Assembly: GCA_945878135.1 (NCBI GenBank)
Contig: CAMDUL010000010.1
Coordinates: 10,022 to 74,021, forward strand
Length of the DNA: 64,000 bases
Source of the DNA: Chthoniobacter flavus
Lineage (GTDB): Bacteria; Verrucomicrobiota; Verrucomicrobiia; Chthoniobacterales; JACTMZ01
Direction of reading: 5' to 3'
A program made the position numbers and the translations under genes. The notes below the pieces were generated by a model. That model did no database searches and was not told the origin of the DNA. It saw nothing but the letters and a program-made list of their open reading frames with translations. Shown here piece after piece: positions 2,703-27,700 of the stretch. The stretch's first letter is position 1; every line of letters begins with the position of its first letter.

Positions 2703-5192
2703 ATGAAGCCTGCTTCATTGCCGCCCGATGAAGCCGCGCGGCAGCTCGCTTTGGACGAGCTGCAACTCCTGGACACCCCCGTCGAGCAGGAGTTCGACGA
2801 CATCACCCTGCTGGCGTCTTTCATCTGCGGCACTCCGATCGCGCTCATTTCCCTGATCGACCGTGAACGCCAATGGTTCAAGAGCCGCGTCGGCATCGAC
2901 ATCCCGGAAACACCGCGGGACATCGCCCTATGTGCGCACGCCATTCTCGGGGACGATATATTCGAGGTCACGGATGCGTCGCTCGACCAGCGGTTCAGCG
3001 ACAACCCGGTGGTGACCGGCGATTTGCATTTGCGGTTTTACGCCGGGGTGCCGCTCAAGACTTCGGACAACCACAATGTCGGCACGCTTTGCGTCATCGA
3101 TCGCGAGCCGCGCCGCCTGAGCGAGCCGCAGCGCGATGCACTCAAGGCGCTGGGGCGGCAGATCATGCGTCTGCTCGAGTTGCGCCAGGCCACCCGCCGG
3201 CAAACCGAGTTGCGCCAACAGCTGGTCTCCGAAACGGCGCTCAGCCGTGCCATCGTGGAGAACGCCGGCACGGCGATCATTTCGACCGACCTGGACGGCA
3301 CCATCCGGGCGTTCAATCCGGCGGCCGAGGAGTTGCTCGGTTACACCGCCGCGGAGATGGTCGGCAAGACCACGCCGGAGGTTTTCCATGATGCGGAGGA
3401 GGTGATGCGGCGCGGCGCGGAACTGTCGCGGCTTTACGGGGAGGAGGTCGGCGGCTTCCAGGTTTTCGTCCGCCCGCTCCGCGAAAACGCGATGTCGTCC
3501 GGGGAGTGGACCTACATCCGCAAGGACGGGCGGCGGGTGCCCGTCGCGCTGACCGTTTCCACGCTGCGCGACGAGGCGGGGGTGCCTTTCGGCTTTCTCG
3601 GGGTGGCCCGGGACCTGAGCGCGGCGAAGGCGCGTGACCGTCAGTTGGAAGCGGCCGCCCGCCTGCGCGACATCATCCGTCGCAGCCAGGAGGATTTCAT
3701 CGCGCGGGGTCCGACCAACGAAATGTTCGACCACCTGCTCCGCGAAATCCTCGATTACACGCAAAGCGAATACGGGTTCATCGGCGAGGTGCTGTACGAC
3801 GAGAAGGGCGATCCCTATCTGCAGACCCATGCCATCACCAACATCGCGTGGAACGAGGCGACGAGGAAACTCTACGAGGACAGCAAAATGACGGGGTTCA
3901 TTTTCCGCAACCTGCACACGTTGTTCGGTGCGGCCTTGACCACCGGCGAGCCGGTCATTGCCAACCATCCGGCCACGGACCCGCGCCGCGGTGGTCTCCC
4001 CAAGGGGCATCCCGCCATGCATGCCTTCCTCGGTCTCCCTTTCCGCTTCGGGGGGGAACTCGTCGGTATGGTCGGGGTGGCCAACCGGCCGGGCGGCTAT
4101 GACGAGGAGTTTGTGCGCGAACTGGTTCCGCTGACCGCCTCATGCGCCGCGCTCATCCACGCCATGCGTTTGGACGCCGAAAGCTCCGCGGCCCGCGAGT
4201 CTCTGGCCAGGGAGCAGGACCGCTTCCGCCTGATCGTCGACACCGCGGCCGAGGCCTTTGTCGAGATCGACGAGGACGGGCGGGTGACCGAGTGGAACCA
4301 GCATGCGGCCGAGGATTTTCATGTCCCCGTGGCGGAGGCGGTCGGACGTCCGGTCGACGAACTCGTCACCTTGCGGAACGAGGACGGAATGTCGTCCGGC
4401 CTGCGGGACCATTTGCCCCGCGAGCTGGAGCGTCCCGGGCAGGCGCGCGAATTCACCTTCGTGCGTGCCGACGGAACGCAGTTCCAAGGCGAACTGGTCA
4501 TGTGGGCCATGCCGCAAGGGGAGTCCCGGCGTCATTGCGCTTTCATCCGCGATGTGACCGAGCGCCACGAATTGGTGAAGCAGCAGCGCCTGCGCTTCGA
4601 GTCCGAGACCCTGCTGAAGGAAATCCATCACCGGGTGAAAAACAACATGCAGGTCATCTCGAGCCTGCTCAGCATCCAGTCCGCGCAACTGAAGGATGCC
4701 GCGCAGCGCGATGTCTTCCTCGAGTGCCGGGAGCGCATCCGCGCCATGTCGCTCATCCACGACAAGCTCTACTCGGCCGGGCGCTACGAGGGGATCGACT
4801 TCGGCGACTACCTGCGCGAAATGGTCGCGCTGATCACTTCCTCGAACCGCCCGGGCGATGCCGAGGTGCGCACCGACCTGCAGGTCGAGCCGGTCGAAGT
4901 GCCCGTGGAGAAGGCGGTGCCGCTCTCGCTCATCGCCAGCGAACTCGTCCTCAACTCGCTCAAACACGCCTTCCGCGGACGCCGCGGGGGGACGCTGACC
5001 GTGCGGCTGCACCGCGAGGACGGGACCTGCCGGCTATTTGTCGGCGATGACGGCCCCGGCATGCGACCGCCCGATCCGGACCACGCGGGCGTGGGGCTGC
5101 AGCTCGTCGAGGGCTTGACCAAACAAATCAAAGGCCGCCGCGAAGTGTCGTCCGGCCCGGGCGTCGGCACGACGATCATCTGGGAGCAATGA
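2703..5192 (+). CDS. Cytoplasmic sensor histidine kinase GAF-PAS-GAF-PAS-HisKA_2/HATPase
   Basis: GAF (FYAGVPL, GTLCVID), PAS domains, LLKEIHHRVKNNMQVISSLL H-box, ELVLNSLKHAF, DDGPG. Confidence 0.92.
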   Translation: MKPASLPPDEAARQLALDELQLLDTPVEQEFDDITLLASFICGTPIALISLIDRERQWFKSRVGIDIPETPRDIALCAHAILGDDIFEVTDASLDQRFSDNPVVTGDLHLRFYAGVPLKTSDNHNVGTLCVIDREPRRLSEPQRDALKALGRQIMRLLELRQATRRQTELRQQLVSETALSRAIVENAGTAIISTDLDGTIRAFNPAAEELLGYTAAEMVGKTTPEVFHDAEEVMRRGAELSRLYGEEVGGFQVFVRPLRENAMSSGEWTYIRKDGRRVPVALTVSTLRDEAGVPFGFLGVARDLSAAKARDRQLEAAARLRDIIRRSQEDFIARGPTNEMFDHLLREILDYTQSEYGFIGEVLYDEKGDPYLQTHAITNIAWNEATRKLYEDSKMTGFIFRNLHTLFGAALTTGEPVIANHPATDPRRGGLPKGHPAMHAFLGLPFRFGGELVGMVGVANRPGGYDEEFVRELVPLTASCAALIHAMRLDAESSAARESLAREQDRFRLIVDTAAEAFVEIDEDGRVTEWNQHAAEDFHVPVAEAVGRPVDELVTLRNEDGMSSGLRDHLPRELERPGQAREFTFVRADGTQFQGELVMWAMPQGESRRHCAFIRDVTERHELVKQQRLRFESETLLKEIHHRVKNNMQVISSLLSIQSAQLKDAAQRDVFLECRERIRAMSLIHDKLYSAGRYEGIDFGDYLREMVALITSSNRPGDAEVRTDLQVEPVEVPVEKAVPLSLIASELVLNSLKHAFRGRRGGTLTVRLHREDGTCRLFVGDDGPGMRPPDPDHAGVGLQLVEGLTKQIKGRREVSSGPGVGTTIIWEQ

Positions 5193-6933: not shown

Positions 6934-8227
6934 CCACGATCTTCGCGGTGCGATTCCGCGGAACGACATGACAGGTGTCGACGATCAGGGGCACATGGTC
7001 GGCCAGTTCATCGTATTTCACGCCGCGGTGCGGGGTGCAGACCACCGCGGCGTCGAAGGTCTTCAACTCATGGTCGCTCCACGGGATGGAATGCCGGCCC
7101 GACCAGTGATTGCGGCCCGGAGCGATGCGCGGCACGTGCGGGTCATAATACTCGACATCCGCACCCTTGGCCGCAAGCAGATCCATGATGTCGTAAGAAG
7201 GGGACCCGCGGTCGTCGGATACACCCGGCTTGTAGGCCAATCCGAGGACGAGCACGCGGGCCCCGTGCAGGGCGCGTCCCGCGGAATTCAAGGCCTCGAG
7301 AAGATGGTTGACCGCGTAGTAGGGCATCGAACGGTTGATCTGTCCGGCCAATTCGATGAACCGCGTGTCGTAGTGGTATTCCTTGGCTTTCCACGTGAGG
7401 TAATAAGGGTCAATGGGGATGCAATGCCCGCCCACGCCGGGTCCGGGGTAGAAGGGCATGAAGCCGAAAGGTTTGGTCTTCGCCGCGTCGATGACCTCCC
7501 AGATGTCGATGCCCATGGACGAGTAGATACGCTTCAGTTCGTTGACCAGGGCGATGTTGATGAAGCGGAAGATGTTTTCGGTCAGTTTGACCGCTTCGGC
7601 CGTGTCGCAGTCCTTGACCGGGACGAGGTGCTTGATCACGCGGCCGTAGAGTTCCTCGCCGCGTTCGAGGCAGGCGGGGGTGAGTCCGCCGATGACCTTC
7701 GGCATGTCACCGAGCACACTCTGGTGGTTGCCCGGATCTTCCCGCTCGGGGGAGAACACCAGCGCGAAATCCACGCCGGCTCTCAGTCCGGATCCCTTCT
7801 CCAGCACGGCGAGCAATTCCTCGCGGGTCGTGCCGGGGTAGGTGCTGGACTCGAGCGAGACGAGCATGCCGCGCCTGAGATGCGGGGCCACTTGCGCCCC
7901 CGCGTCGAGGATGTGCGAGAGGTCGGGATCGTGGTGGCGTCGCAACGGCGTCGGCACGCAAATGATGACCGCGGCGGCCTCGGAGAGACGGTCATGGTCG
8001 GCGTTGAAGTCGAGATGGCCCGAGGCGAGGCACGCTTTGATCCGTGAGGACGGGAGATGGGCCAGCGGCGAGTGGCCTTGTTGCAATTCGAGCAGGCGCC
8101 CCTCGTCGGCATCGCTGCCGAGCACGCGGCAGCCGGCCTCGGCGAAGCCCAAGGCGAGCGGGATGCCGACGTAGCCGAGCCCGACAACGGCCACGTCGTA
8201 ACGGGCATTTTCCGGTTTGCCGATCAT
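6926..8227 (-). CDS. Nucleotide-sugar (UDP-GlcNAc/ManNAc-type) dehydrogenase
   Basis: VVGLGYVG, ICVPTP, ESSTYPGTT, SPEREDPG, GPGVGGHCIP, GLAYK. Confidence 0.93.
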   Translation of the reverse strand: MIGKPENARYDVAVVGLGYVGIPLALGFAEAGCRVLGSDADEGRLLELQQGHSPLAHLPSSRIKACLASGHLDFNADHDRLSEAAAVIICVPTPLRRHHDPDLSHILDAGAQVAPHLRRGMLVSLESSTYPGTTREELLAVLEKGSGLRAGVDFALVFSPEREDPGNHQSVLGDMPKVIGGLTPACLERGEELYGRVIKHLVPVKDCDTAEAVKLTENIFRFINIALVNELKRIYSSMGIDIWEVIDAAKTKPFGFMPFYPGPGVGGHCIPIDPYYLTWKAKEYHYDTRFIELAGQINRSMPYYAVNHLLEALNSAGRALHGARVLVLGLAYKPGVSDDRGSPSYDIMDLLAAKGADVEYYDPHVPRIAPGRNHWSGRHSIPWSDHELKTFDAAVVCTPHRGVKYDELADHVPLIVDTCHVVPRNRTAKIVDA

Positions 8228-9639
8228 GAGACGGCGGCGGCGGGGGTGAGTCTCTCCATTTTGGCGCCGAGATCCCGACGGCGCAGAAACACGTATTGGA
8301 AAGTCCCGACGAGGGAGCAGAGGAGGCGGAATTGGTGGAAGCCGAGCTGATCGAGAAAGATCGCGCCGATCATTTTCCAGAACTCGCCCCATGACGCGGT
8401 GCGCCAGCGCGAGGACTCATTGATCAAGACGGCCAGCAAGGTGAGGAAAACACCCGTGATGTAAGCAAGGAAAAGAAGGACAAGAACCTGCTTCCCCGTG
8501 GCGAGTCCGGCGATCAGGAGGACGATGGCCAGGGTGTAGGCGAGCAATTCCACGAGCGGGGCGAGGGCTTCGAAGAAGAGAAAGAACGGGAGCCCGAAGA
8601 TTCCGGTCATCCCGTAGCGCGGGTTGAAGAGCATGCGCCAGTGGCGGAAGATCGACTGGAGGGTGCCGCGTTGCCAGCGGTTGCGCTGCGAAGCGTATTG
8701 ACCCCAGCTCTCCGGCACCTCGGTGTAGCACACCGCGTCCGGGGTGAAAGCGAGCGCGTGGTGGCGTCCGTTGCGCCGGTCGTAGATGTGCCCGTTGAGC
8801 CGGATGGCGAATTCCATGTCGTCGGTGATCGATTGCGGCCAGGGTCCGCCCGCGGCCTCGAAGACGCTTTTCTTGACGAGAAGCAGCGCACCGGAAATGC
8901 AGAGCATGCTTCGCAAGCGGCTCAAGCCGGTGCGGGCCCAATGGAAGCTGCGCGCGTATTCGATCTCCTGGTTTAGACCGAGCATGGTGCGGGGCAAGCC
9001 GCGGCGGGTGATGGTGCCGTTTTCCACGGTGAGGCCGTTGGAAGGACGGACCACGCCGGCCGAGGCGGCCAGCCGCGACTCGACGAGGAAGGGCCGCGCC
9101 ATGTGGAGGAGACCGTCGGGCTCGAGGACGCAGTCGGCATCGATCACGCAGAGGAGCGGATAGCGGGCGAGGCCCGATCCGGCATTGATGGCGTCCGCCC
9201 GGCGACCGTTTTCCTTGGCCGCCACCACCAGGTTCGGGAAGGTCTCGCTTTCATAAATGGCGTTCACTTGCTTCGTGCCGATGCGCTTGCGCGCCTGCTT
9301 GTCCACCCGGCGCAAGCCGAAGCGGCGTTGGAGCACGCCGATGGTGTCGTCGGTCGAGCCGTCGTCGACCACGATAACCTCGTGGGCGGGGTAGTTCAGC
9401 TTGAGAGCGTTCTCCACCGTGCCGACGATGATGTCCGCTTCGTTGTGTCCGGGGATAATGACCGACACCGGCATGGACAGCTCCGATTTGGAAATCCGGT
9501 CGAACTCCGCGAAGGTAACCGCGCTCTTGTAGCGTCGCACTTGGGCCGCGCCGAGAAAGACGAGGAGGAAATAGACGAGGTGCAGGGCGACGAAATAAAT
9601 GAGGATGCCCCAAAGAAGGATGTGGACGATGTTGATCAT
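8224..9639 (-). CDS. Processive GT2 glycosyltransferase (PgaC/IcaA-like)
   Basis: N- and C-terminal TM helices, DDGSTD, IDAD, TDD, QRNRW (QxxRW). Confidence 0.9.
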   Translation of the reverse strand: MINIVHILLWGILIYFVALHLVYFLLVFLGAAQVRRYKSAVTFAEFDRISKSELSMPVSVIIPGHNEADIIVGTVENALKLNYPAHEVIVVDDGSTDDTIGVLQRRFGLRRVDKQARKRIGTKQVNAIYESETFPNLVVAAKENGRRADAINAGSGLARYPLLCVIDADCVLEPDGLLHMARPFLVESRLAASAGVVRPSNGLTVENGTITRRGLPRTMLGLNQEIEYARSFHWARTGLSRLRSMLCISGALLLVKKSVFEAAGGPWPQSITDDMEFAIRLNGHIYDRRNGRHHALAFTPDAVCYTEVPESWGQYASQRNRWQRGTLQSIFRHWRMLFNPRYGMTGIFGLPFFLFFEALAPLVELLAYTLAIVLLIAGLATGKQVLVLLFLAYITGVFLTLLAVLINESSRWRTASWGEFWKMIGAIFLDQLGFHQFRLLCSLVGTFQYVFLRRRDLGAKMERLTPAAAVS

Positions 9640-10727: not shown

Positions 10728-11596
10728 ACGGCTCCTATTGTCGGGGCCCACTGTTGGTAGAGCTCACCGGAGTTGTTTTCGCGCAGGCGGTAGACGTATT
10801 GCAGGCCGGCCACGAGGGCGAAGTCCGGCGTGATGGGCTGCCGGTAGAAGAGCGAGCCGATCCATGCGTTGGAAAGACTGGTCGCGCCGCTGCCGAACTC
10901 CAGATCCGGATCGGTGCCGTAGGCCAGGCCGACGGTCAGGCGTCCGCCGCCCGGCATATTCCAGAAATTCATGCTGCCGGCGTAGTAATTGTAGTTGTCG
11001 TCGTTGAACGCCCAGCCGTGCGCGTAGCGGAAGGTGAAAAATATGTCGTCGTTGAACCACCAGGAGAATCCGGGTTTGATCTGCTCGATTGACCCCTCGC
11101 CGAGCGGGGCGACGCTGGCGAAGTTCAGCTGCGTGTAGTCGAAGAGGAGAAGCAGGCGCGGGGCGACTTGGTATTCCAGTCCGCCGGAATAGATCTGGTT
11201 GGGCGAAAACTGCGGGTCCGCAGAGAAGGACAGTTTGGTGTGCACTTCGAGGTATTTGACCGGATACCAGGAGGCGATGGCGCTGTAGAGAATGTCGGTG
11301 CCCGAAGGAGGGCGCTGCAGGATGTCGATGCCGGTCCCGATGATGAGGTTGGGGTACGGCTGGTAGAGGACCTCGGTGTAGATTTGCTGCCAGGCGCTGC
11401 GTCCGTCGTTGAATCCGGTGATGGTGTAAAGAGGCACGATGGTCCACCGTCGGAACGGTTTCCCTTCCCGCACTTCGACCGCCTGCTCCAAGATCACCTC
11501 TTGGTTGAGCAGGGCGGCAGCGTCGTTCATCTGACCGGATGCGGTCGTCAGGACGCCGGAAGCAAGAAGGAGCAGCGCGGCCGTGGGGGCTCTCAT
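10715..11596 (-). CDS. YaiO-like outer-membrane beta-barrel protein
   Basis: Signal peptide, alternating aromatic beta strands, C-terminal ...IGAVWTF; context next to GT2/HEAT genes. Confidence 0.7.
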   Translation of the reverse strand: MRAPTAALLLLASGVLTTASGQMNDAAALLNQEVILEQAVEVREGKPFRRWTIVPLYTITGFNDGRSAWQQIYTEVLYQPYPNLIIGTGIDILQRPPSGTDILYSAIASWYPVKYLEVHTKLSFSADPQFSPNQIYSGGLEYQVAPRLLLLFDYTQLNFASVAPLGEGSIEQIKPGFSWWFNDDIFFTFRYAHGWAFNDDNYNYYAGSMNFWNMPGGGRLTVGLAYGTDPDLEFGSGATSLSNAWIGSLFYRQPITPDFALVAGLQYVYRLRENNSGELYQQWAPTIGAVWTF

Positions 11597-12579
11597 GCGG
11601 CCCGCCTTTCCGAAGTCTCGCGGGCGCACCCGAGCAGATCGTCGATTGTTTGCTCGAGGTTCCAGTGCGGACGGAACCCGGTGAGTGCTTCCAATCTTTC
11701 CGTCACCGGATGGCGCTGCGTGATCTGGTCGAATTGCGCGCCGTAAGCTTGGGCAAAAGGTACGAACTCGATTTCCGAGCGGCTGCCGGTGCGTTCGATG
11801 ACCATGCGGGCAAGGTCGACGATGCGCGTCTCGCGATCGTTGCCGACATTGACCGGCTGTCCGGCCGCGGCCGCATTGCCTGCGAGGAGGTCGATGGCTG
11901 CGATAGTGTCGCGCACGTCGCAGAAGGAACGGGTCTGCGTCCCGTCACCGAAGACGGTGAGCGGTTCGCCGGCCAAGGCCTGCTTGATGAAACGCGGCAG
12001 GACGAACCCGTAATTGGGCGACTGGCGGGGTCCCACCGCATTGAAAAGACGGGGGATGGTCACCTGCAGACCGTGCTCCTGGCGGTAGGCCATGGCTTGG
12101 ATTTCATTGCTCAGCTTGCTCAGGGCGTAGCCGGTCAGTCCGCCTTCCCGCGGCAGGTAGACCAATTCGTCATCTTCCCGCAGGTCCCGGCTGCGGCTGT
12201 GGCTGTAGACCGAGGAGCTCGAGGCAATGACCACCTGCGGGCGGTGCGCACACGTGGCGATTGTTTCGAGCAACCGTTCGGTTGCGCAGACATTCACTTG
12301 CGTCACGCGCACCGGTTCGCGCAGCACGCGAAACATGCCGACCACGGCGGCCAGATGGTAGACGCGGTCCGCGGCCTCCGCCGCTCCGGCCAATCCCTCC
12401 CAGTCCATGAGATCCGCCTCGACGAGACAAAAGCGGGCATTGCTCTCGAAGGCGGCGATGTTGTCCCGGTGGCCCGTGCTCAGATCATCGATGGCCGTGA
12501 CATGGTCCCCCCGGTTCAAATGTTTCTCGACGACGTGGGACCCGATGAAGCCGGCGCCGCCGGTGACCAAGATATTCAT
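11593..12579 (-). CDS. NAD-dependent nucleotide-sugar epimerase/dehydratase
   Basis: MNILVTGGAGFIGSH, HLAA, ASSSSVY, YALSK, FGDGTQTRSF. Confidence 0.93.
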   Translation of the reverse strand: MNILVTGGAGFIGSHVVEKHLNRGDHVTAIDDLSTGHRDNIAAFESNARFCLVEADLMDWEGLAGAAEAADRVYHLAAVVGMFRVLREPVRVTQVNVCATERLLETIATCAHRPQVVIASSSSVYSHSRSRDLREDDELVYLPREGGLTGYALSKLSNEIQAMAYRQEHGLQVTIPRLFNAVGPRQSPNYGFVLPRFIKQALAGEPLTVFGDGTQTRSFCDVRDTIAAIDLLAGNAAAAGQPVNVGNDRETRIVDLARMVIERTGSRSEIEFVPFAQAYGAQFDQITQRHPVTERLEALTGFRPHWNLEQTIDDLLGCARETSERRAA

Positions 12580-12798
12580 TCGGCGGAGAGAGGTTGTTGT
12601 CCCACTCCGCGGAGGTGAGCAGGGCGCGATGTGGTGTGCTTGTCGAGTGGAGTTGTGCTGTGGCGTGTTTCCATATGGCAAAGCCAATCTAATCTCCCGT
12701 CTCCGCCCGCCACTATGGGGTGAGTTGCCCATGCCGTGGCCCGTCGTTTCACCATCGCGAACACAGGGTTGCGGTCCGCCCTTTGCATCCGCCGACTG

Positions 12799-13609: not shown

Positions 13610-14119
13610 ATGAATAAACGCACCATCATACTTCCCGCTCTCGCCTGCGCCGCGGCGGTTGCTTTCCCCGGATTCGTCACCGCCCAGGAGCATCCCGCCC
13701 CGCCGGCCGCGTCCGGAAATCTTGCCACCGTGGCCTCCGCCAACCCGGACTTCACCACCCTGGTCGCCGCCCTGCGCGCGGCGGATCTGGTCGCCACGTT
13801 GCAAGGCAAGGGACCATTCACCGTTTTCGCACCGAACAACGCCGCCTTTGCCAAATTGCCGCCCGGAGCGCTCGATGACCTGATGAAGCCGGAGAACAAA
13901 AAGAAGCTGGCCGCAATCCTGAAAAACCACGTGGCTGCCGGAAAAATCATGGCAGCGGAGATCAAAGACACGCGGTTGCCGATGCTCAATGGCGACCGGG
14001 TCGAGATCGCGGTGGAAAACGGCAACGTCGGCTTCGGTGGTGCCAAGGTCCTGCGCACCGACATTTCCGCCTCGAATGGCGTGATCCACGTGATCGATAC
14101 CGTGGTCATGCCCGACTGA
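13610..14119 (+). CDS. Fasciclin (FAS1) domain protein
   Basis: Signal peptide; FTTLVAAL, GPFTVFAPNNAAF, SNGVIHVIDTV. Confidence 0.93.
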   Translation: MNKRTIILPALACAAAVAFPGFVTAQEHPAPPAASGNLATVASANPDFTTLVAALRAADLVATLQGKGPFTVFAPNNAAFAKLPPGALDDLMKPENKKKLAAILKNHVAAGKIMAAEIKDTRLPMLNGDRVEIAVENGNVGFGGAKVLRTDISASNGVIHVIDTVVMPD

Positions 14120-14702: not shown

Positions 14703-15311
14703 ATGGAAAACTTCCGCTACCTCGTTGCCTTGTTGCTCGTCACCCTTGTCCCGGCCACCTTCTTCTACTGGCTGCTGCTTCATGCCTTGCTGCCCGTGTG
14801 GCGGCGGCTCGGCATCTCTGCTTCGCAGTATTTGCTCTGGGCCGCGGTCACTGCGATGGCTCTCCTCCTCTTCGCCTGTCGCGACGAGTTGCTGGGGAAC
14901 GCCTACGGGTTCCAGCCTTTGCTCGCTGCGGTCGGCATCGTTTTGCTGGCCGGGGCCATTGTCTTTCGCTTGCAGATCGAACGCCATTTGCCCTGGCGGG
15001 TGCAGCTCGGCTTGCCCGAGATCGATCCCTCGGGCCACCCGCAGCGGCTGGTCACCGACGGACCTTACGCCCACACCCGGCATCCGCGCTACGTGCAGGT
15101 GCTCCTTGCCTTGGCGGGTTGGGCCCTGCTGGCCAATTACCCGGCAGGATATCTTGCGGCGCTGCTCTGGATTCCTTTCCTCTTTGTCATCGTGCGCCTC
15201 GAGGAACCGGAGTTGCGCCGGCGTTTCGGCATGGAGTATGCCGACTACGAGCACCGCGTGGCGCGCTTCTGGCCGCAGACGCCCGCGTCCAATCACCGCG
15301 TCAAAGCCTGA
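14703..15311 (+). CDS. Isoprenylcysteine carboxyl methyltransferase / PEMT family membrane protein
   Basis: LVTDGPYAHTRHPRY, EEPELRRRFG.EY.DY; multiple TM segments. Confidence 0.88.
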   Translation: MENFRYLVALLLVTLVPATFFYWLLLHALLPVWRRLGISASQYLLWAAVTAMALLLFACRDELLGNAYGFQPLLAAVGIVLLAGAIVFRLQIERHLPWRVQLGLPEIDPSGHPQRLVTDGPYAHTRHPRYVQVLLALAGWALLANYPAGYLAALLWIPFLFVIVRLEEPELRRRFGMEYADYEHRVARFWPQTPASNHRVKA

Positions 15312-15321
15312 GCAAAGAGCC

Positions 15322-15687
15322 ATGAACACGCACCATCCGGCGATTGGCAACCTGCTGCGCTCGCATTCCGGCATCCGGCGGGGCGGACTGCGGGAAATCC
15401 TCGAAATGATCGACGGCGAGATCGGCCTGCCCGTTCCCGCGGCCCGATTCCGTGCCGATTTCGTGCCGACGGCCGCGCGTTGGGACGGACCCTCGCGCAC
15501 GGTCCATCTCTACGAAATCAGTTCGGGCCAGTCCTTTCCGGACGGCACCTTCGATGCCATCCGCGATTTTGCCGAACGCTTGCACGAAGGCACGGGCTGT
15601 TTCACCGCCATGTGGATCGCCGACGGCGATGGTAACGATCCGATGAAGGTCTGGGACGTGAGGGACGAGTTGATTTGGGCCAGATAA
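15322..15687 (+). CDS. Hypothetical protein
   Basis: 121-aa ORF directly after the ICMT gene, with protein-like composition. Confidence 0.6.
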   Translation: MNTHHPAIGNLLRSHSGIRRGGLREILEMIDGEIGLPVPAARFRADFVPTAARWDGPSRTVHLYEISSGQSFPDGTFDAIRDFAERLHEGTGCFTAMWIADGDGNDPMKVWDVRDELIWAR

Positions 15688-15750
15688 AGGAAGGCTGAAA
15701 GCTGAAGCTTGAGCGTGAGTTATGCCGGAACCTCATGGCAACAAATGCAC

Positions 15751-15774
15751 CGACGCTCACAGAGCGCCGCTACA
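15751..15774 (-). repeat. GTAG-type REP, family 1
   Basis: Minus strand TGTAG-CGGCGCTC-TGT-GAGCGTCG; same pattern at 27813, 27851, 42383 and 43217. Confidence 0.8.
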
Positions 15775-16636
15775 AATGTGTCGCTGTGCCGGTGTGGTTC
15801 GCCAGCGCGAGGCGGCGGGCGCGTTGGCGGAGGTAGGAGCGGGCGCGGCGGGCGCGGGCCATCACGATGTCGGGGCTGCCGTCGCCGGCCAGTTCGAGGA
15901 TGAGGGCGCCGGTGAAGTTCACGGCGGCCAATTCCTTGAGCAACGCGGTCCAGTCGATGCGTCCGTCGCCCGGCGGAAGATGGTCGTCGCCGTGGCCCTT
16001 GTTGTCATGGACGTGGAGCAACCGCAGATACGGGGCCATTTTGCAGACGAGCGCGAAAAGGTCCCCGGCGAGATGGGCGTGGCCGGTGTCGAGGCACGCG
16101 CCGACGCGGTTGCCTTTGAGGCAGGCGAGGATCCAGAGGAGGTCGGCGGACTGTCCGAACATGAGGTGCGGCAGTTTGTTTTCCAGCACGCATTGGATGC
16201 CGACCTCGCCGCAGCGCGCGGCCACGCGGTCGAGGACGCCGCAGACGTTCTCGATGCGCAGCAGGCGTTCCTCGCGCGAGGGAATGTCCGAGTTCTCGGG
16301 TCCAGGATGGATGACGAAATAATGCACGCCGAGCAGGGCGGCGGCGTCGATGGCGGGCAGGATGGCCTCGAAGGCTCGTTGGCGGGTGGCGGCGTCGGGT
16401 GAGGAGATGTCGATGTCGTCGGCAAACGGCGCGTGGAACGAGTAGGCTTCCATACCGAGCGTGTCGATGCGCGCCGCGGCCTCCTGGACGCGCGCGGGGT
16501 TTTTGTAGTCCAAGTGCGGCGACGAGAACACAACCTCGATCATGCTGAAGCCGCTGGCGCGGATGGTCTCGAGCCGGTCGATCAGCGGCTCAGTGTAGAA
16601 GCAACCGGTCGACAATCCGATGGGCCAGTTGGTCAT
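15770..16636 (-). CDS. Xylose-isomerase/AP endonuclease 2 (endonuclease IV-like) TIM barrel protein
   Basis: FHAPF, IHPG, LENK, CLDTGHA, LHVHDN, DDHLPPGDG, ILE metal-ligand pattern. Confidence 0.85.
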   Translation of the reverse strand: MTNWPIGLSTGCFYTEPLIDRLETIRASGFSMIEVVFSSPHLDYKNPARVQEAAARIDTLGMEAYSFHAPFADDIDISSPDAATRQRAFEAILPAIDAAALLGVHYFVIHPGPENSDIPSREERLLRIENVCGVLDRVAARCGEVGIQCVLENKLPHLMFGQSADLLWILACLKGNRVGACLDTGHAHLAGDLFALVCKMAPYLRLLHVHDNKGHGDDHLPPGDGRIDWTALLKELAAVNFTGALILELAGDGSPDIVMARARRARSYLRQRARRLALANHTGTATHL

Positions 16637-17994
16637 AGCTCGACGGCTGCGAGTGGCGAGGGCACGGCGCACGGCGGATGGGTTTCGGCGCCGCGGATTT
16701 CCTCCGCCTCGGTGGCGACGGAGGTGCGTTGTCCGGCGAAGATGCGGGTGTAGTAGTCGGCACGCAGAGCCGGGGAATAATCTTTCCATTCCGCGCCCCA
16801 TCCGTAATCACGTTCGAATTTCGAGCGGATCAGCCCGGCGATGTGGCGCGGATGCCAGCCGCGGTCGAGCAGGGAATTGGTGACCCGCTGCATGCCGACC
16901 GGGCGCAGGAGGAGATCATTGGGATGGCGCAGTGCCTCCCGCGCGCCGGCCGGCAGAATGTCCAGCGGCGTGTGGTCGTAGGTTTCCGGCCAGCGGTGGG
17001 GATCGTCGTGCCGGGCGGTATGGAAAAAGTCGTGGAAGGCCTTGAGTCCGGATCCGAGGTAGTGGTGCAGCAGGTGTTCCGTGCCCGTGGTGTGATCGGG
17101 AATGACCGCCGTGGCGTCGCGGGCCGCTTCGGCGGCCAGCGCCGGGTTGCGCATCGCGGCGAGGCCGTGCCGCAGGTCGGTGCCGTCGAGAGTGACGAAA
17201 ATGATCGGTCCGATGCGCGGCAGGTTGTCCGTGCCGATGGCTTGCGGTTGTTGCCATGGCTTGAGGTAGCCGCTGAAGGGCACACGGATGGTGCGCATGG
17301 GCAGGGGATCGGCGTATTCGGAGAGGTCGAGCGAGATCATTTCCCTTCCGCGCCGCGAGGGCGGCGGTTCGACGGCCGTCATTTCGACGGGAATGACCGT
17401 GTCGCGATCGGCCAACTGCATGACAAGGCGGGCGACGAATTCCATGAGGAGCCCGAGTCCGGCGAAAGCGCAGGTGATGGACGGTGCGTCGAGTCCGTCG
17501 CGCCGGCGGACGAGCAGGGAGTCATGAAGCTGGGCGGCCCGGCCCGATTCGGCCAGGCGGGCGAAAACACTCGAGGCGCGGCTGATGCGCCAGACGAAAT
17601 GGTGTCCGCGTCCGCTGAGGATATGCAACGGTTCGATCCCGTAGTGCGCGAGCACACGGCGCAAGGCCATCTCGACCGGTTCCTGCAGGGCGAAGGCCCG
17701 GGCGGGGTCGAGGTAGGCGTCCGCCGGGAAGTCGAAATTCACATACTCGATATCGACGTGGGCGAGAAGTGAGTCGCGGTCGGCCAGCGAGCGGCAGATG
17801 TCGCGTCCGGCTTCGAGTTGGGGCGCGAGTTCCCAAGGCAGGAGCGGCTCGCGCTCGGCGGCGCGGGTGTTGTCCGCGGTGATGTATTCCGCGGTGAAGT
17901 CGCCCGCGGCGTCCGCCCCGAGGAATTCCAGCATGCGCGCGCGCACGGCAGGCTGGCGGTAGTAGTCGCGAAGGGTGTCGGTGATATCGGGCAC
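16633..17994 (-). CDS. Hypothetical protein with archaeo-eukaryotic primase (AEP/Prim-Pol)-like motifs
   Basis: HVDIEY (motif I DxE), SGRGHH (motif II), LDLSEY...RTIRVPFS (motif III plus RxxRxPxS); GTG start chosen by eye. Confidence 0.65.
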   Translation of the reverse strand: MPDITDTLRDYYRQPAVRARMLEFLGADAAGDFTAEYITADNTRAAEREPLLPWELAPQLEAGRDICRSLADRDSLLAHVDIEYVNFDFPADAYLDPARAFALQEPVEMALRRVLAHYGIEPLHILSGRGHHFVWRISRASSVFARLAESGRAAQLHDSLLVRRRDGLDAPSITCAFAGLGLLMEFVARLVMQLADRDTVIPVEMTAVEPPPSRRGREMISLDLSEYADPLPMRTIRVPFSGYLKPWQQPQAIGTDNLPRIGPIIFVTLDGTDLRHGLAAMRNPALAAEAARDATAVIPDHTTGTEHLLHHYLGSGLKAFHDFFHTARHDDPHRWPETYDHTPLDILPAGAREALRHPNDLLLRPVGMQRVTNSLLDRGWHPRHIAGLIRSKFERDYGWGAEWKDYSPALRADYYTRIFAGQRTSVATEAEEIRGAETHPPCAVPSPLAAVEL

Positions 17995-18082
17995 GACATG
18001 AGGGAACACCAGGCGCGGTGATCGTGAAATGGGGTATACTGCCCGCTGCACGCCTCCGGCGCGGGTGGCAGAATTGTCCACG

Positions 18083-18304
18083 GTGAAGACTCCGGCTATT
18101 CCGCCAAAGTTCCGTTCCGCGTTGATCGCTTCCGCGGACGGCTCGCCGGGCCGCTACAAAGTGCGGTTGCCCCACGGCCACACGGTTTACGAGGTGCGGA
18201 TCGACGGAGAGGGCAATGTCGTATGGGTGGACGGCCGCAAGGTGCATGGCAATGCGGAGCTCGGCTTCCGCATCGAGGACGCGCTCGGGATCGAGGCATA
18301 CTGA
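18083..18304 (+). CDS. Small hypothetical protein
   Basis: 73-aa ORF with beta-rich composition, divergent from the AEP-like gene. Confidence 0.5.
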   Translation: MKTPAIPPKFRSALIASADGSPGRYKVRLPHGHTVYEVRIDGEGNVVWVDGRKVHGNAELGFRIEDALGIEAY

Positions 18305-18520
18305 CGACTCCGGGCGGGCCGGTCATTGTTTGGCATTCCGGAAGAGACCGCCCGCCTGCTCATGACTATTCATGAAGGCGCATGGCTCGGGCGCGGCCCC
18401 AAAGTCTACTATACCTTGATCATGGGGTGCGGTCTGCTCGCCTTGGGAATCTTCGGCCTTCTCTTGCGGCGCAAACGGCATTGGTGGCGCGGCTCTTTCG
18501 CGTCTTGGGTGGGACTTTGA
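18305..18520 (+). pseudogene. Probable N-truncated PepSY-associated TM helix protein
   Basis: AGRSLFGIPEETARLLMTIHEGAWLG...YYTLIMGCGLLALGIFGL resembles the C-terminal half of PepSY-TM proteins; no first TM helix or strong start. Confidence 0.45.
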
Positions 18521-25042: not shown

Positions 25043-25495
25043 CTAAGAAACGGGGACTTCGACGGCTTTGGTCTGGATCTCGGGAGCCTTGGGCAGATGG
25101 ACGTGCAGGGTGCCGTCTTTGAACTCGGCTTTGACCTTGTCCGTCTTGGCCCCTTCGGGCAGGACGAAGGATCTTTCGAAGCTGCCGTAGGAACGCTCGA
25201 TCCGGTGGTAGCGGCGGTTTTTCTCCTCTTTCTCGAACTTGCGCTCGCCGGTGATGCGGATGGTGCCGTCCTCCACGGTGACATGGACGTCTTCCTTTTT
25301 CACCTCCGGCAGATCGGCTTTGATGGTGAACTCTTTGTCGTCCTCCGAGACGTCGACCAGCGGGCTCCATTCGGAGGCGCTGATCGTTTCCTCCCCGGTC
25401 CACGGAACGAGGGAACGGCCTCCGAAGAGGCGGTCGATGCGGTTTCGCATGGTGTCCATTTCGCGGACCGGATTCCAGGTGGTGAGTATGCTCAT
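25043..25495 (-). CDS. Hsp20/alpha-crystallin small heat-shock protein
   Basis: WSPLVDV, ADLPEV, ITGERK, ERSYGSFERSF.LP, AEFKDGTLHVHLPK. Confidence 0.95.
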   Translation of the reverse strand: MSILTTWNPVREMDTMRNRIDRLFGGRSLVPWTGEETISASEWSPLVDVSEDDKEFTIKADLPEVKKEDVHVTVEDGTIRITGERKFEKEEKNRRYHRIERSYGSFERSFVLPEGAKTDKVKAEFKDGTLHVHLPKAPEIQTKAVEVPVS

Positions 25496-25620
25496 GATGT
25501 TGTTTTTCCTTTTTCTGCGGTGATTTCGGTTGCCGTGCGCGGCATTCACCGCCGGTGCCGTGCGCGGGTCCGGTTTGACGTCTGAAGCGGCGCTCCGGGA
25601 TGTCCCAAGCAAAGCGCAGG

Positions 25621-26000: not shown

Positions 26001-26510
26001 TTATTCCCGGGCGTAGCGACCGAGGAGTTCGGCGCGCTCGAGGATGTGGTCGCGCATGGCGTCCTCCAAGTCGGCGCGGAACGAACCGGCGCGGAGATCG
26101 AGGGTTCTGTCGAGGGCGTAGAGACGGAAGCAGTAGCGGTGGGTGCCGCGCGGGGGACTGGGACCGACGTATTTGGCCGTGCCGGCGTCATTGGTTCCGA
26201 CGACCGCGCCGCTCGGGACGGAATCCTCTTTGATCACGGTGGTGCCGGGCTGGATGTTCCAGACCGGCCAGTGAGTCCAAGTGCCCATCGGCGCATCGGG
26301 ATCGTCGACGATGAGAACAAGGCTCTTGGCTTCGTCCGGGACGCCGCTGATTTTGAGGGGCGGGTTGACGTTTTTGCCGTCCGCGGTGAAGCGTTCAGGG
26401 ATGGGACGGCGTTCGCTGAAGGCCGTGGTCGAGATTTTCATGCTGGTGAAGGGTTTTGCTTCCGCGGTGCCGGTGAAGAATGGGTGCAGCAGGCAAAGGC
26501 AGGGCGGCAA
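26001..26510 (-). CDS. YbhB/YbcL (PEBP, Raf kinase inhibitor-like) protein
   Basis: NPPLKI, LVLIVDDPDAP.GTWTHW, YVGPSPP.GTHRY.F.LYALD; start may instead be ATG 26441. Confidence 0.9.
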   Translation of the reverse strand: MPPCLCLLHPFFTGTAEAKPFTSMKISTTAFSERRPIPERFTADGKNVNPPLKISGVPDEAKSLVLIVDDPDAPMGTWTHWPVWNIQPGTTVIKEDSVPSGAVVGTNDAGTAKYVGPSPPRGTHRYCFRLYALDRTLDLRAGSFRADLEDAMRDHILERAELLGRYARE

Positions 26511-26839
26511 TCACCTCGGGATCCATCGGGTCAGCATGCGGCGGCCGGGAGGCGGAAGAGGATCAGGGAGAAGAAGGAGGAGTTTTCGCAAGAGCGCTTT
26601 CATGCAGATGATTGTGGGATGTCCGGCCGTGGTGATCCATGGGGTGATCGACCCGGAGATTCGGAGAAAGGATCTTCGTGCCGACCGGCAAACGATCATC
26701 TTCTTGCGTCTTTCCAAAATGAAGCAACTGGTCTCGCCGGAGGAGCGGCGGGCGGCTTGTTTTCGGCGGAGGCGGCGCGTGAAGGCCTTGCGGTCATCGC
26801 CCCATGGTTTGGGAGTCGCGGGAGACTCAGGATGGGGCC

Positions 26840-27700
26840 ATGGAAGAAAAGCAGATCGCGGCTTCCGGCGCGGCGGTGAATGCCTTCGGGCTCTACTTGC
26901 GGGAAATCGGAAGGGAAACCTTGCTCACGCCGGAGCAGGAGAAGGAATTGGCCGCGCGGATCAAGCGGGGGGACAAAGCGGCGCGGGAGCGGATGATCAC
27001 GGCGAACCTGCGCCTCGTGGTGAAACTGGCCACGGGCTATGCGAATCTCGGACTGCCGCTGCTCGACTTGATTTCGGAGGGTAACATCGGGTTGATGAAA
27101 GCGGTGGAGCGATTCGATCCGGCCAAGGGCGGGAAGCTGAGCACTTATGCCGCATGGTGGATCAAGCAATCGATCAAGCGAGCGCTGGCCAACCAGAGCA
27201 AAACAATCCGCGTGCCGGTGCACCAGATCGAGAAGATCGCCAAGATCCGGCGGCTGAACGAGCGACTGACCGCGGACCTGGGCCGCGAGCCGTCGGATGA
27301 GGAATTGGCCGACGAAGTCGGGCTGACGGCGGCGAAAGTGGCTGCGCTGAAGGGCAGTGCGATCAGTCCGGCGTCCCTTGACGCACCGGTCGGCCGGGAC
27401 GACGGGGAGACGCTTTTCGGCGAGATGATTTCGGACGAAAATGCGGAGGATCCGCGTGCAAAGCTGGAGGAAAAAGACGCGCTTGCCGGCCTCGGCAGCG
27501 TGCTCGAGGTGCTGACCCCGCGCGAGCGCGAGATCATGAAGCTTCGTTACGGCTTGGGAGGGGGCAGGCAGAAAACGCTGGAGCACATCGGCGCGAAGTT
27601 CGGGATCACGCGCGAGCGGATCCGGCAGATCCAGGTGGGGGCGTTGAGGAAGCTGCGGCGGGAGATGGGGCGGCAGCAAGCTGTGGCGGTGCCGTATTAG
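26840..27700 (+). CDS. Group 2-like sigma-70 factor (RpoD/RpoS family, no region 1.1)
   Basis: YLREIG, ANLRLVVK, DLISEGNIGLMKAVERFDP, STYAAWWIKQ, TRERIRQIQ. Confidence 0.93.
   Translation: MEEKQIAASGAAVNAFGLYLREIGRETLLTPEQEKELAARIKRGDKAARERMITANLRLVVKLATGYANLGLPLLDLISEGNIGLMKAVERFDPAKGGKLSTYAAWWIKQSIKRALANQSKTIRVPVHQIEKIAKIRRLNERLTADLGREPSDEELADEVGLTAAKVAALKGSAISPASLDAPVGRDDGETLFGEMISDENAEDPRAKLEEKDALAGLGSVLEVLTPREREIMKLRYGLGGGRQKTLEHIGAKFGITRERIRQIQVGALRKLRREMGRQQAVAVPY

Follow-up and report, generated by a model that had tools for sequence, protein, structure and literature searches.

Most of what is known about the archaeo-eukaryotic primases (AEPs) of bacteria concerns LigD/Ku end joining, Prim-PolC/LigC excision repair and mobile elements. 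In LigD the polymerase is joined to a 3′-phosphoesterase, an arrangement analogous to the gene pair described here. Mycobacterial Prim-PolC, LigC and EndoIV have been reconstituted in base excision repair (PMC5663958). We analyzed a 64,000-nt stretch of a Chthoniobacter flavus genome (GenBank assembly GCA_945878135.1, contig CAMDUL010000010.1, positions 10,022 to 74,021 of the forward strand), hereafter the window, for a pair of overlapping minus-strand genes: gene A, whose product is a predicted AEP followed by a helical C-terminal domain, and gene B, whose product is an endonuclease-IV-like TIM barrel. A preliminary description, made from the DNA letters, had proposed that the two form an undescribed nick-and-fill module or, as a second option, that a repurposed AEP makes a nucleotide product which the barrel processes. 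We found that they constitute an obligate pair occurring in at least seven phyla, with recurring stress-related genes as neighbors.

The product of gene A (hereafter A) matched no Pfam or NCBIfam model at E values up to 1, including PF01896 and PF21686, and no PDB sequence was found with either the single sequence or the family profile. Homologues number at least 1229 in clusters at 90% identity and form a family of 526 representative clusters at 50% identity, named “hypothetical protein” wherever the sources name them. The AlphaFold model of A, built from 73 diverse relatives with a predicted local distance difference test score (pLDDT) of 93.3 and a predicted template-modeling score (pTM) of 0.93, was compared exhaustively with known structures by VIA-align. 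Prim-PolC (6sa0_A) was the top match with Z 17.3, a root-mean-square deviation of 3.1 and 250 aligned residues, followed by the LigD-Pol chains 2fao_A (Z 16.2), 2iru_A (Z 15.6) and 5dmu_A (Z 15.6), whereas eukaryotic and archaeal PriS scored Z 10.7–12.3 and CAPP Z 11.8; the best non-AEP chain reached only Z 5.1. Foldseek against the PDB gave weak matches (best E 2.8e-3), and ranks 1–26 among the matches listed were AEP chains throughout. Both comparisons bore out the AEP fold that had been predicted for A.

The active site was examined in 25 relatives at 49–84% identity and in a wide set of 73 sequences reaching down to 27% identity. The three stretches that had been picked out as AEP motifs I–III, DIE, SGRGHH and LD...RTIRVPFS, proved invariant in 25/25 relatives, the last of them as L222-D223 followed by R234-T-I-R237-V-P-F-S, and in the wide set D81, G128, H132, R234 and R237 were each at least 90% conserved. 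A helical insert sits between motifs II and III. Taken together, the modeled fold and the active-site residues place A in the AEP superfamily; on the model A is closest in shape to the bacterial repair AEPs, yet it is a separate family for which no profile model exists. Membership in the LigD-Pol sequence family was rejected, as hhalign of the 73-sequence A profile against nine verrucomicrobial LigD-Pol domains returned E 0.29 at a probability of 0.2%, with motif II as the sole aligned stretch, and PF21686 gave no match.

Some variants of A were seen in passing. One relative of 612 aa (P0239) carries an N-terminal CBS domain pair, which hints at regulation by an adenosyl ligand. Another protein of 428 aa (P0258) begins with a PocR sensor domain and ends in an AraC-type helix-turn-helix, and its residues 184–376 match A residues 47–235 at 43% identity; chimerism, misassembly or domain recruitment could account for it. 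Other verrucomicrobial families carry a distant A-like subfamily at 23–25% identity, with as many as three copies in a genome and without a B partner. It was seen at L096 (6148..7512, plus strand, and 7843..9156, minus strand) and at L097–L100, and its copies are sometimes convergent neighbors. DEDDh exonuclease, HD hydrolase, Ldh_2, ATP-grasp and GDSL lipase genes lie nearby and gave no clear lead; at L100 the distant A-like gene stands between a DEDDh exonuclease gene and the Ldh_2 and HD-domain genes.

The C-terminal domain, which the preliminary description had expected to be helical, is so in the model from residue 297 to about residue 430 and is extremely conserved, for example in WHPRHIAGLIRSKFERD. 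In protein-language features, used here for leads only, whole A fell beside clusters of archaeal PriS, PriX and fused PriS-PriL at 0.94, and the C-terminal domain alone beside the PriL C-terminal domain (PriL-CTD, 0.89), PriX (0.87) and PriCT_1 (0.86). The domain was then modeled alone from an orthologue bearing the cysteines described below (pLDDT 83.8). All of its VIA-align Z values lay under the program's caution line of 8: photolyase/cryptochrome helical domains gave Z 5.3–6.6, the iron-sulfur (Fe-S) domain of yeast PriL (6di2_A) gave Z 6.2 over 112 aligned residues, and the Fe-S (6-4) photolyase (5.2), human PRIM2C (4.7), PriX (4.3) and the pRN1 helix bundle (4.0) followed, with rank 50 at Z 3.1. 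PriL and photolyases are structurally alike. We take the domain, as modeled, to be a putative PriL-CTD-type helper, because despite the low Z values the list of matches equals the PriL-CTD/photolyase/PriX/PriCT set. A relationship among PriL, PriCT and PriX has been argued (PMC5862659).

Four alignment columns of A hold cysteine in 57/73, 56/73, 56/73 and 47/73 relatives; an LPxC motif accounts for one column and a C-terminal FNC..C....C stretch for the other three. The A protein of the window and its freshwater relatives have none of the four, and this A has lost a motif carried by most of its relatives. An Fe-S cluster is probably bound in most family members and absent in the lineage of the window. 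The likeness of the C-terminal domain to the Fe-S domain of the primase large subunit, the loss of the four-Cys motif in the A of the window and the stress-related context described below go beyond what had been noted before.

The product of gene B (hereafter B) matched PF01261 at 1e-38, and its weaker matches among curated models were sugar epimerases. In a PDB search with a profile of 24 orthologues linked to A, the nearest solved relative was MJ1311 (3wqo; 2.5e-29), ahead of TTHB071 (1e-11), ketose 3-epimerases (from 3e-11) and endonuclease IV (3.4e-9 for 5zhz to 1.6e-6 for the E. coli enzyme). Nine residues, H68, H110, E152, D183, H186, H208, D217, H219 and E248, were invariant in 24/24 orthologues, and we take them to correspond to the residues of the trinuclear metal site of endonuclease IV in E. 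coli Nfo numbering. MJ1311 and TTHB071 share this series in the profile alignments, whereas the ketose 3-epimerase 8yeb, from the PF01261 branch characterized by a single E-D-H-E metal site, has no equivalents of H68, H110, D217 and H219; a D-x-H-x3-G-x-G segment is also found in B. Homologues of B are publicly annotated as “sugar phosphate isomerase/epimerase”, a name that the ligand pattern disfavors. By its sequence B is a predicted endonuclease-IV-type phosphodiesterase of a separate, MJ1311-like clade. The earlier identification of B as endonuclease-IV-like held for the ligand series; B is not a canonical Nfo (TIGR00587: 37.9 bits against a cut-off of 129.65). Among the relatives, MJ1311 appears in Table 1 of PMC2770678 as the EndoIV homologue predicted for M. 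jannaschii, and tthb071 has been described as AP-endonuclease-like and was up-regulated in a mutS2 mutant (PMC3084264). CbiR, whose metal residues are conserved and which belongs to the same superfamily, is a metal-dependent phosphodiesterase (PMC7733943).

The next-best matches to the B profile, at ~169 bits, came from four genomes of one genus (G093, G111, G132 and G279; ~2.3 Mb), all lacking A; these B-like proteins may be CbiR-type candidates.

The two genes were found to be strictly coupled. A pattern scan of one genome per species returned 413 stretches encoding a relative of A, and in the best 80 of these 413, spanning Verrucomicrobiota, Planctomycetota, Fibrobacterota, Acidobacteriota, Nitrospirota, Methylomirabilota and one Alphaproteobacteria bin, the gene immediately behind A is a B orthologue in 80/80 loci. 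The B match covered at least 250 of 288 residues in 74 of the 80; B is cut by the contig end at L032, L053, L067 and L076, split over two frames at L035, and present only as a fragment (residues 207–259; 4417..4575) at L049. Among 301 genomes drawn evenly from the phylum, 8 had an A-like gene, three of them with the core type in four copies, one genome having two. B matches of at least 375 bits occurred in exactly these three core-type genomes, adjoining A, the next B-like match dropping to 169 bits. Identity across phyla is ~45–50%. The co-occurrence of A and B is far beyond chance, and the two are an obligate pair. Some pairs look decayed from their sequences, namely L049 and one of the two B copies of G123 (contig C43), which has an in-frame TAG.

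A and B are also read as one frame in two proteins, P0133 (747 aa) and P0135 (724 aa), in which the B start codon is in frame with A; both came from nine mostly long representatives scanned out of 150 listed. In the Cys-bearing lineages (L036, L039–L048, L051–L081) the A frame extends ~56 nt into B, and the conserved A tail (..RPFNRL..) is the other-frame reading of the conserved N terminus of B, while in the lineage of the window the overlap is only the ATGA that had been noted as a sign of translational coupling. We give the fusions moderate weight, since with a ~56-nt overlap a one-base error could join A and B. No longer A-B fusions of 794–2265 aa were found, which is weak evidence, and a prediction of the A-B complex scored 0.00 against a mark of 0.32, a result that counts neither way.

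No neighbor besides B is conserved across lineages in the 80 loci; the context nevertheless recurrently includes stress genes. Hsp20 genes were called in 22/80 loci, a lower bound because the selection of open reading frames (ORFs) dropped some, and in 18 of the 22 the hsp20 gene immediately precedes A in the same orientation. In soil Verrucomicrobiota, 13 loci have universal stress protein genes no more than 8 kb away, accompanied by a P-type ATPase gene and an erythromycin-esterase-like gene. In the window, GGG(C/T)-N5-(C/A)ACCCCAT was found upstream of five genes of the contig, those for A, hsp20, PEBP, fasciclin and NAD-epimerase, in the correct orientation and 19–128 nt from the ORFs, and a related TCACCCCATTGA occurs within ~150 nt upstream of 12/23 hsp20 genes of relatives. 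The five genes may form a local stress regulon. The recurring stress neighbors, together with the CCCCAT motif common to A and hsp20, are suggestive of co-regulation of the pair with small heat-shock and stress proteins. A consensus scan of 15200..18500 found no sigma-70-like promoter, and its three terminator-like matches are within chance and inside coding sequence; judged by eye, the five CCCCAT sites share no −35 element.

Two further features were seen in this context. A 298-aa sigma-70-family gene with regions 1.2–4 (26804..27700, plus strand) adjoins hsp20 and PEBP. At 16 Terrimicrobiaceae-type loci (L008, L009, L010, L011, L013, L014, L016, L019, L021, L023, L024, L026, L027, L030, L032 and L050) the interval from the hsp20 stop to the A start contains a conserved, GC-rich hairpin of 11 bp, ~30–70 nt upstream of A. 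Three of its pairs covary, ten stem pairs are unbroken in the 16 sequences, the loop-closing pair fails in one, and no U-run follows the stem. Possible roles for the hairpin are those of attenuator, processing site or stability element.

Table 1. Coordinates of gene A, gene B and associated features in the window (position 1 is its first nucleotide; residues are those of the encoded protein).
Feature	Position	Strand	Description
Gene A	16633..17994	-	453 aa; GTG start at 17994, TGA stop at 16635..16633
AEP catalytic domain, residues 1 to ~296	17107..17994	-	assigned from structure matches
Motif I, D81-I-E83	17746..17754	-	metal-binding acidic pair; invariant 25/25; D81 at least 90% in 73
Motif II, S127-G-R-G-H-H132	17599..17616	-	nucleotide binding; invariant 25/25; G130 invariant in 73
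Motif III, D223	17326..17328	-	invariant 73/73
C-terminal helical domain, residues 297 to ~430	16705..17106	-	resembles PriL-CTD, PriX, PriCT
A stop/B start overlap, ATGA	16633..16636	-	four-base overlap, reverse-strand sequence
Gene B	15770..16636	-	288 aa; ATG start at 16636..16634, TAG stop at 15772..15770
Gene B fold	15770..16636	-	xylose-isomerase-like TIM barrel, endonuclease-IV-type nine-residue metal site, MJ1311 clade
Promoter-like motif GGGC-N6-ACCCCAT	18029..18044	-	ends 34 nt before the GTG of A
hsp20	25043..25612	-	gene with motif
PEBP	26001..26510	-	gene with motif
Fasciclin	~13610..14119	+	gene with motif
NAD-epimerase	11593..12687	-	gene with motif

The A-B pair is an operon of its own, standing alone in the window (Table 1). 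GTG was taken as the A start, in agreement with the M-x-D-I beginnings of its relatives in the alignment. The GC content at third codon positions is of coding type in the A and B frames (0.80 and 0.83 in a 64% GC genome), and the codon bias and GC content of the pair resemble those of its surroundings. Downstream are a convergent plus-strand gene for a PEMT-like methyltransferase, a small gene without assignment and the fasciclin gene; upstream, a small divergent ORF is followed by a resistance-nodulation-division (RND) efflux operon. Other neighbors encode a transglutaminase-like protease, the NAD epimerase and a GT2 glycosyltransferase, and farther out lie HEAT-repeat, UDP-glucose dehydrogenase, Hsp20, PEBP and sigma-factor genes. 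As had been stated, no Ku, ligase, helicase or mobile-element gene adjoins the pair in the window.

The host genome (2.64 Mb in 56 contigs, 90.7% complete) contains A once, and the A-B stretch also occurs in freshwater metagenomes, on contigs from four sequencing runs. At this completeness the genome has no canonical nfo, the nfo model matching B alone; it encodes xth, an ATP-dependent ligase and dnaG, and no Ku was found in it. A separate contig, C11 (L103 2068..5790, plus strand), encodes a 1240-aa protein in which a metallo-beta-lactamase/beta-CASP-like (RMMBL) domain is fused to a three-domain ATP-dependent DNA ligase. This fusion is a possible sealing partner, unlinked to the A-B pair, and as read from its sequence the host genome appears to have LigA-independent ligation options of this kind.

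The best-supported reading, which we put forward tentatively, is a stress-induced, clean-or-nick-and-fill repair module. When cells meet heat or general stress, or do not grow, A and B would together act on damaged nucleic acid, most likely DNA. B, as a trinuclear-metal phosphodiesterase, would incise abasic or damaged sites or remove 3′-blocking groups, leaving a 3′-OH, which A would extend over a short gap, or A might prime anew; the PriL-CTD-like domain of A would keep the 5′ end, or else the initiating nucleotide, in place, and a host ligase would seal the nick. We infer the substrate, the order of action, the sealing step and the use of ribo- or deoxyribonucleoside triphosphates. The following observations support a role in repair: the best structural matches of A are repair AEPs (Z 15.6–17.3), ahead of the replicative PriS (Z 10.7–12.3); B keeps all nine endonuclease-IV ligand positions; the pairing is obligate and its context stress-related; the host genome has no canonical nfo and has xth, an ATP-dependent ligase and dnaG; and mycobacterial Prim-PolC, LigC and EndoIV offer a precedent. 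The structural calls and the pairing of the preliminary description were upheld, and nick-and-fill, its proposed function, is the best-precedented reading.

Several findings weigh against this repair module. Among the conserved neighbors at the 80 loci, no ligase, Ku or glycosylase gene is linked to the pair, and the host already has ExoIII, the product of xth. The best curated model for B is CbiR (NF041277), with 60 bits against a cut-off of 105, and B stays under the nfo cut-off as well. The crystal structure of MJ1311 reportedly has the nine ligands and no DNA-binding groove, and to our knowledge MJ1311 has no demonstrated DNA activity. One relative of A carries a CBS pair, a metabolite-sensing module. 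As to regulation, GGG-N7-CCCCAT occurs 15 times genome-wide against ~60 expected from base composition and is thus not enriched, and the motif is called sigma-32-like after CCCCATnT, the E. coli sigma-32 −10 consensus. Finally, a PriL-like domain is what one expects in a de novo primase and not in a repair AEP that fills gaps. A could be read as such a primase, a single-chain PriS plus PriL-CTD that reprimes or restarts replication after stress or on exit from dormancy, with B preparing the template or trimming products (abasic sites, blocked ends), so that the pair would serve damage tolerance and not excision repair. We consider this unlikely. It draws on the resemblance of the C-terminal domain to the dinucleotide-synthesis domains PriL-CTD (Z 6.2), PriX and the pRN1 helix bundle, on the four-Cys motif of the wider A family, which is like that of the PriL Fe-S cluster, and on the single-chain PriS-PriL primases of Nanoarchaeum and plasmid pTN2, and the stress context applies to it equally; however, the catalytic core of A is nearer to repair AEPs than to PriS, DnaG is present in the genome, no helicase is linked to the pair, the helical-domain Z values are under the caution line of 8, and the A of the window has no cysteines.

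A role on a substrate other than chromosomal DNA, which we likewise regard as improbable, could take two forms: the pair would heal RNA ends, or B would cleave or mature a nucleotide-containing small molecule or short oligonucleotide made by A, in the manner of CbiR, which cleaves the nucleotide loop of cobamides. The second option of the preliminary description belongs here. CbiR being the best curated model for B, the separateness of the next B-like group (169 bits, four genomes, one genus) from A, the reported lack of a DNA groove in MJ1311 and the CBS pair of one A relative are in line with such a role, whereas an AEP with a PriL-like helper has been a templated nucleic-acid polymerase in every characterized case, B is under the CbiR cut-off (60 versus 105 bits), and no cobamide, nucleotide-metabolism or signaling gene is conserved beside the pair in the window and the 80 loci. 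A particular non-repair form of this idea, in which A makes short 5′-triphosphate oligonucleotides de novo under stress and B, lacking a DNA groove, cleaves or matures them, is in our estimate quite improbable; if true, it would represent a bacterial pathway of primase-made small nucleic-acid products in the Planctomycetota-Verrucomicrobiota-Chlamydiota (PVC) group, Fibrobacterota and Acidobacteriota. That the pair is mobile-element cargo, a replication module of such an element or an anti-phage defense system is very improbable. Its distribution is patchy (8/301 genomes, one genome with two copies), the ~45–50% identity across phyla suggests horizontal transfer, and many of the AEPs in bacteria belong to mobile elements (PMC5862659); yet searches of 72,556 plasmid and 50,697 phage records gave no match to the pair, viral contigs contained no relative, neither A nor B fell into a PADLOC or PHROGs family at E up to 0.1, the 80 loci had no integrase, helicase or replication genes, and GC content and codon bias match the surroundings. 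Hardly credible at all is the reading that follows the public annotation, with B as a sugar isomerase/epimerase and A as merely an unrelated neighbor. Ketose epimerases are indeed among the PDB sequence matches, sugar-nucleotide genes lie less than 10 kb away in the window, and transketolase and phosphoglucomutase genes are near the pair in Fibrobacterota loci, but the epimerases are without four of the nine ligands that are invariant in B, the sugar genes are confined to particular lineages and belong to other strands or operons, conservation of a carbohydrate operon was not seen, and B is strictly coupled with A. The outcomes that would have undone the initial proposal, a fold other than AEP, motifs not conserved in relatives, or an epimerase in carbohydrate operons, were all absent.

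Each part of the pair has known counterparts: an AEP, a PriL-like helper, an endonuclease-IV-like barrel. Apparently new are the A family, the way its domains are fused on a bacterial chromosome, the hard-wired pairing with B and the stress context; no description of the A-B pair was found in targeted full-text searches of the open literature or in the accessible portion of the AEP family survey PMC5862659, supplements and subscription journals lying outside this search. This large chromosomal family occurs in at least 413 species genomes, comprises 526 clusters at 50% identity and is absent from every profile library searched, and it joins a repair-type AEP core to a mostly Fe-S-type PriL-like domain and ties both to an endonuclease-IV-like enzyme of its own. 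Were the repair module real, it would equip freshwater and soil Verrucomicrobiota, Planctomycetota, Fibrobacterota and Acidobacteriota, phyla that are poorly studied yet environmentally abundant, with a self-contained cassette for repair under stress or in dormancy, and the MJ1311 clade, annotated as “sugar isomerase”, would gain a function. The natural series of Cys-bearing and Cys-free orthologues is suited to testing the debated role of the primase Fe-S cluster. The family also bears on the statement of Kazlauskas et al. 2018 (PMC5862659) that PriL-type domains accompany replicative primases almost exclusively.

Compared with the known systems, A shares with PriS plus PriL-CTD, with the Nanoarchaeum equitans primase and with PolpTN2 the order of an AEP domain followed by a helical helper domain, and with PriL the four conserved cysteines of most family members and a predicted fold resembling yeast PriL-CTD and the photolyase helical domain. 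It differs from these primases in that the A family is bacterial and chromosomal, exists alongside DnaG and matches PriS more weakly than repair AEPs, and, in the case of the A of the window, in having none of the four cysteines; we know of no PriS-PriL primase paired with a TIM-barrel phosphodiesterase. B has the xylose-isomerase-like TIM barrel of endonuclease IV (Nfo/Apn1) and its nine ligand positions in the same order, invariant throughout, and differs in scoring 37.9 bits against the 129.65 required by the nfo model and in matching E. coli Nfo merely at 1.6e-6. Closest to B by sequence among solved structures, with the same ligand series, are MJ1311 (3wqo) and TTHB071 (3ayt), for which we know of no proven substrate and no AEP partner. 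CbiR of Akkermansia, a phosphodiesterase of the same superfamily with conserved metal residues (PMC7733943), gives B its best curated score, though one under the cut-off, and no cobamide genes stand beside the pair in the window and the loci. The nearest likeness of A is with Prim-PolC and LigD-Pol, in the AEP fold (Z 17.3 and 15.6–16.2) and in the intact motifs I–III, and with Prim-PolC there is the precedent of an AEP working after endonuclease IV (PMC5663958). Unlike these polymerases, A has no profile-level sequence relation to them (PF21686 none; hhalign E 0.29), no ligase or Ku is linked to the pair, and A carries the extra PriL-CTD-like domain and the helical insert between motifs II and III. 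The nuclease of the A-B pair is encoded in the same operon as its polymerase, whereas the mycobacterial EndoIV partner was identified through protein interactions and reconstitution in vitro.

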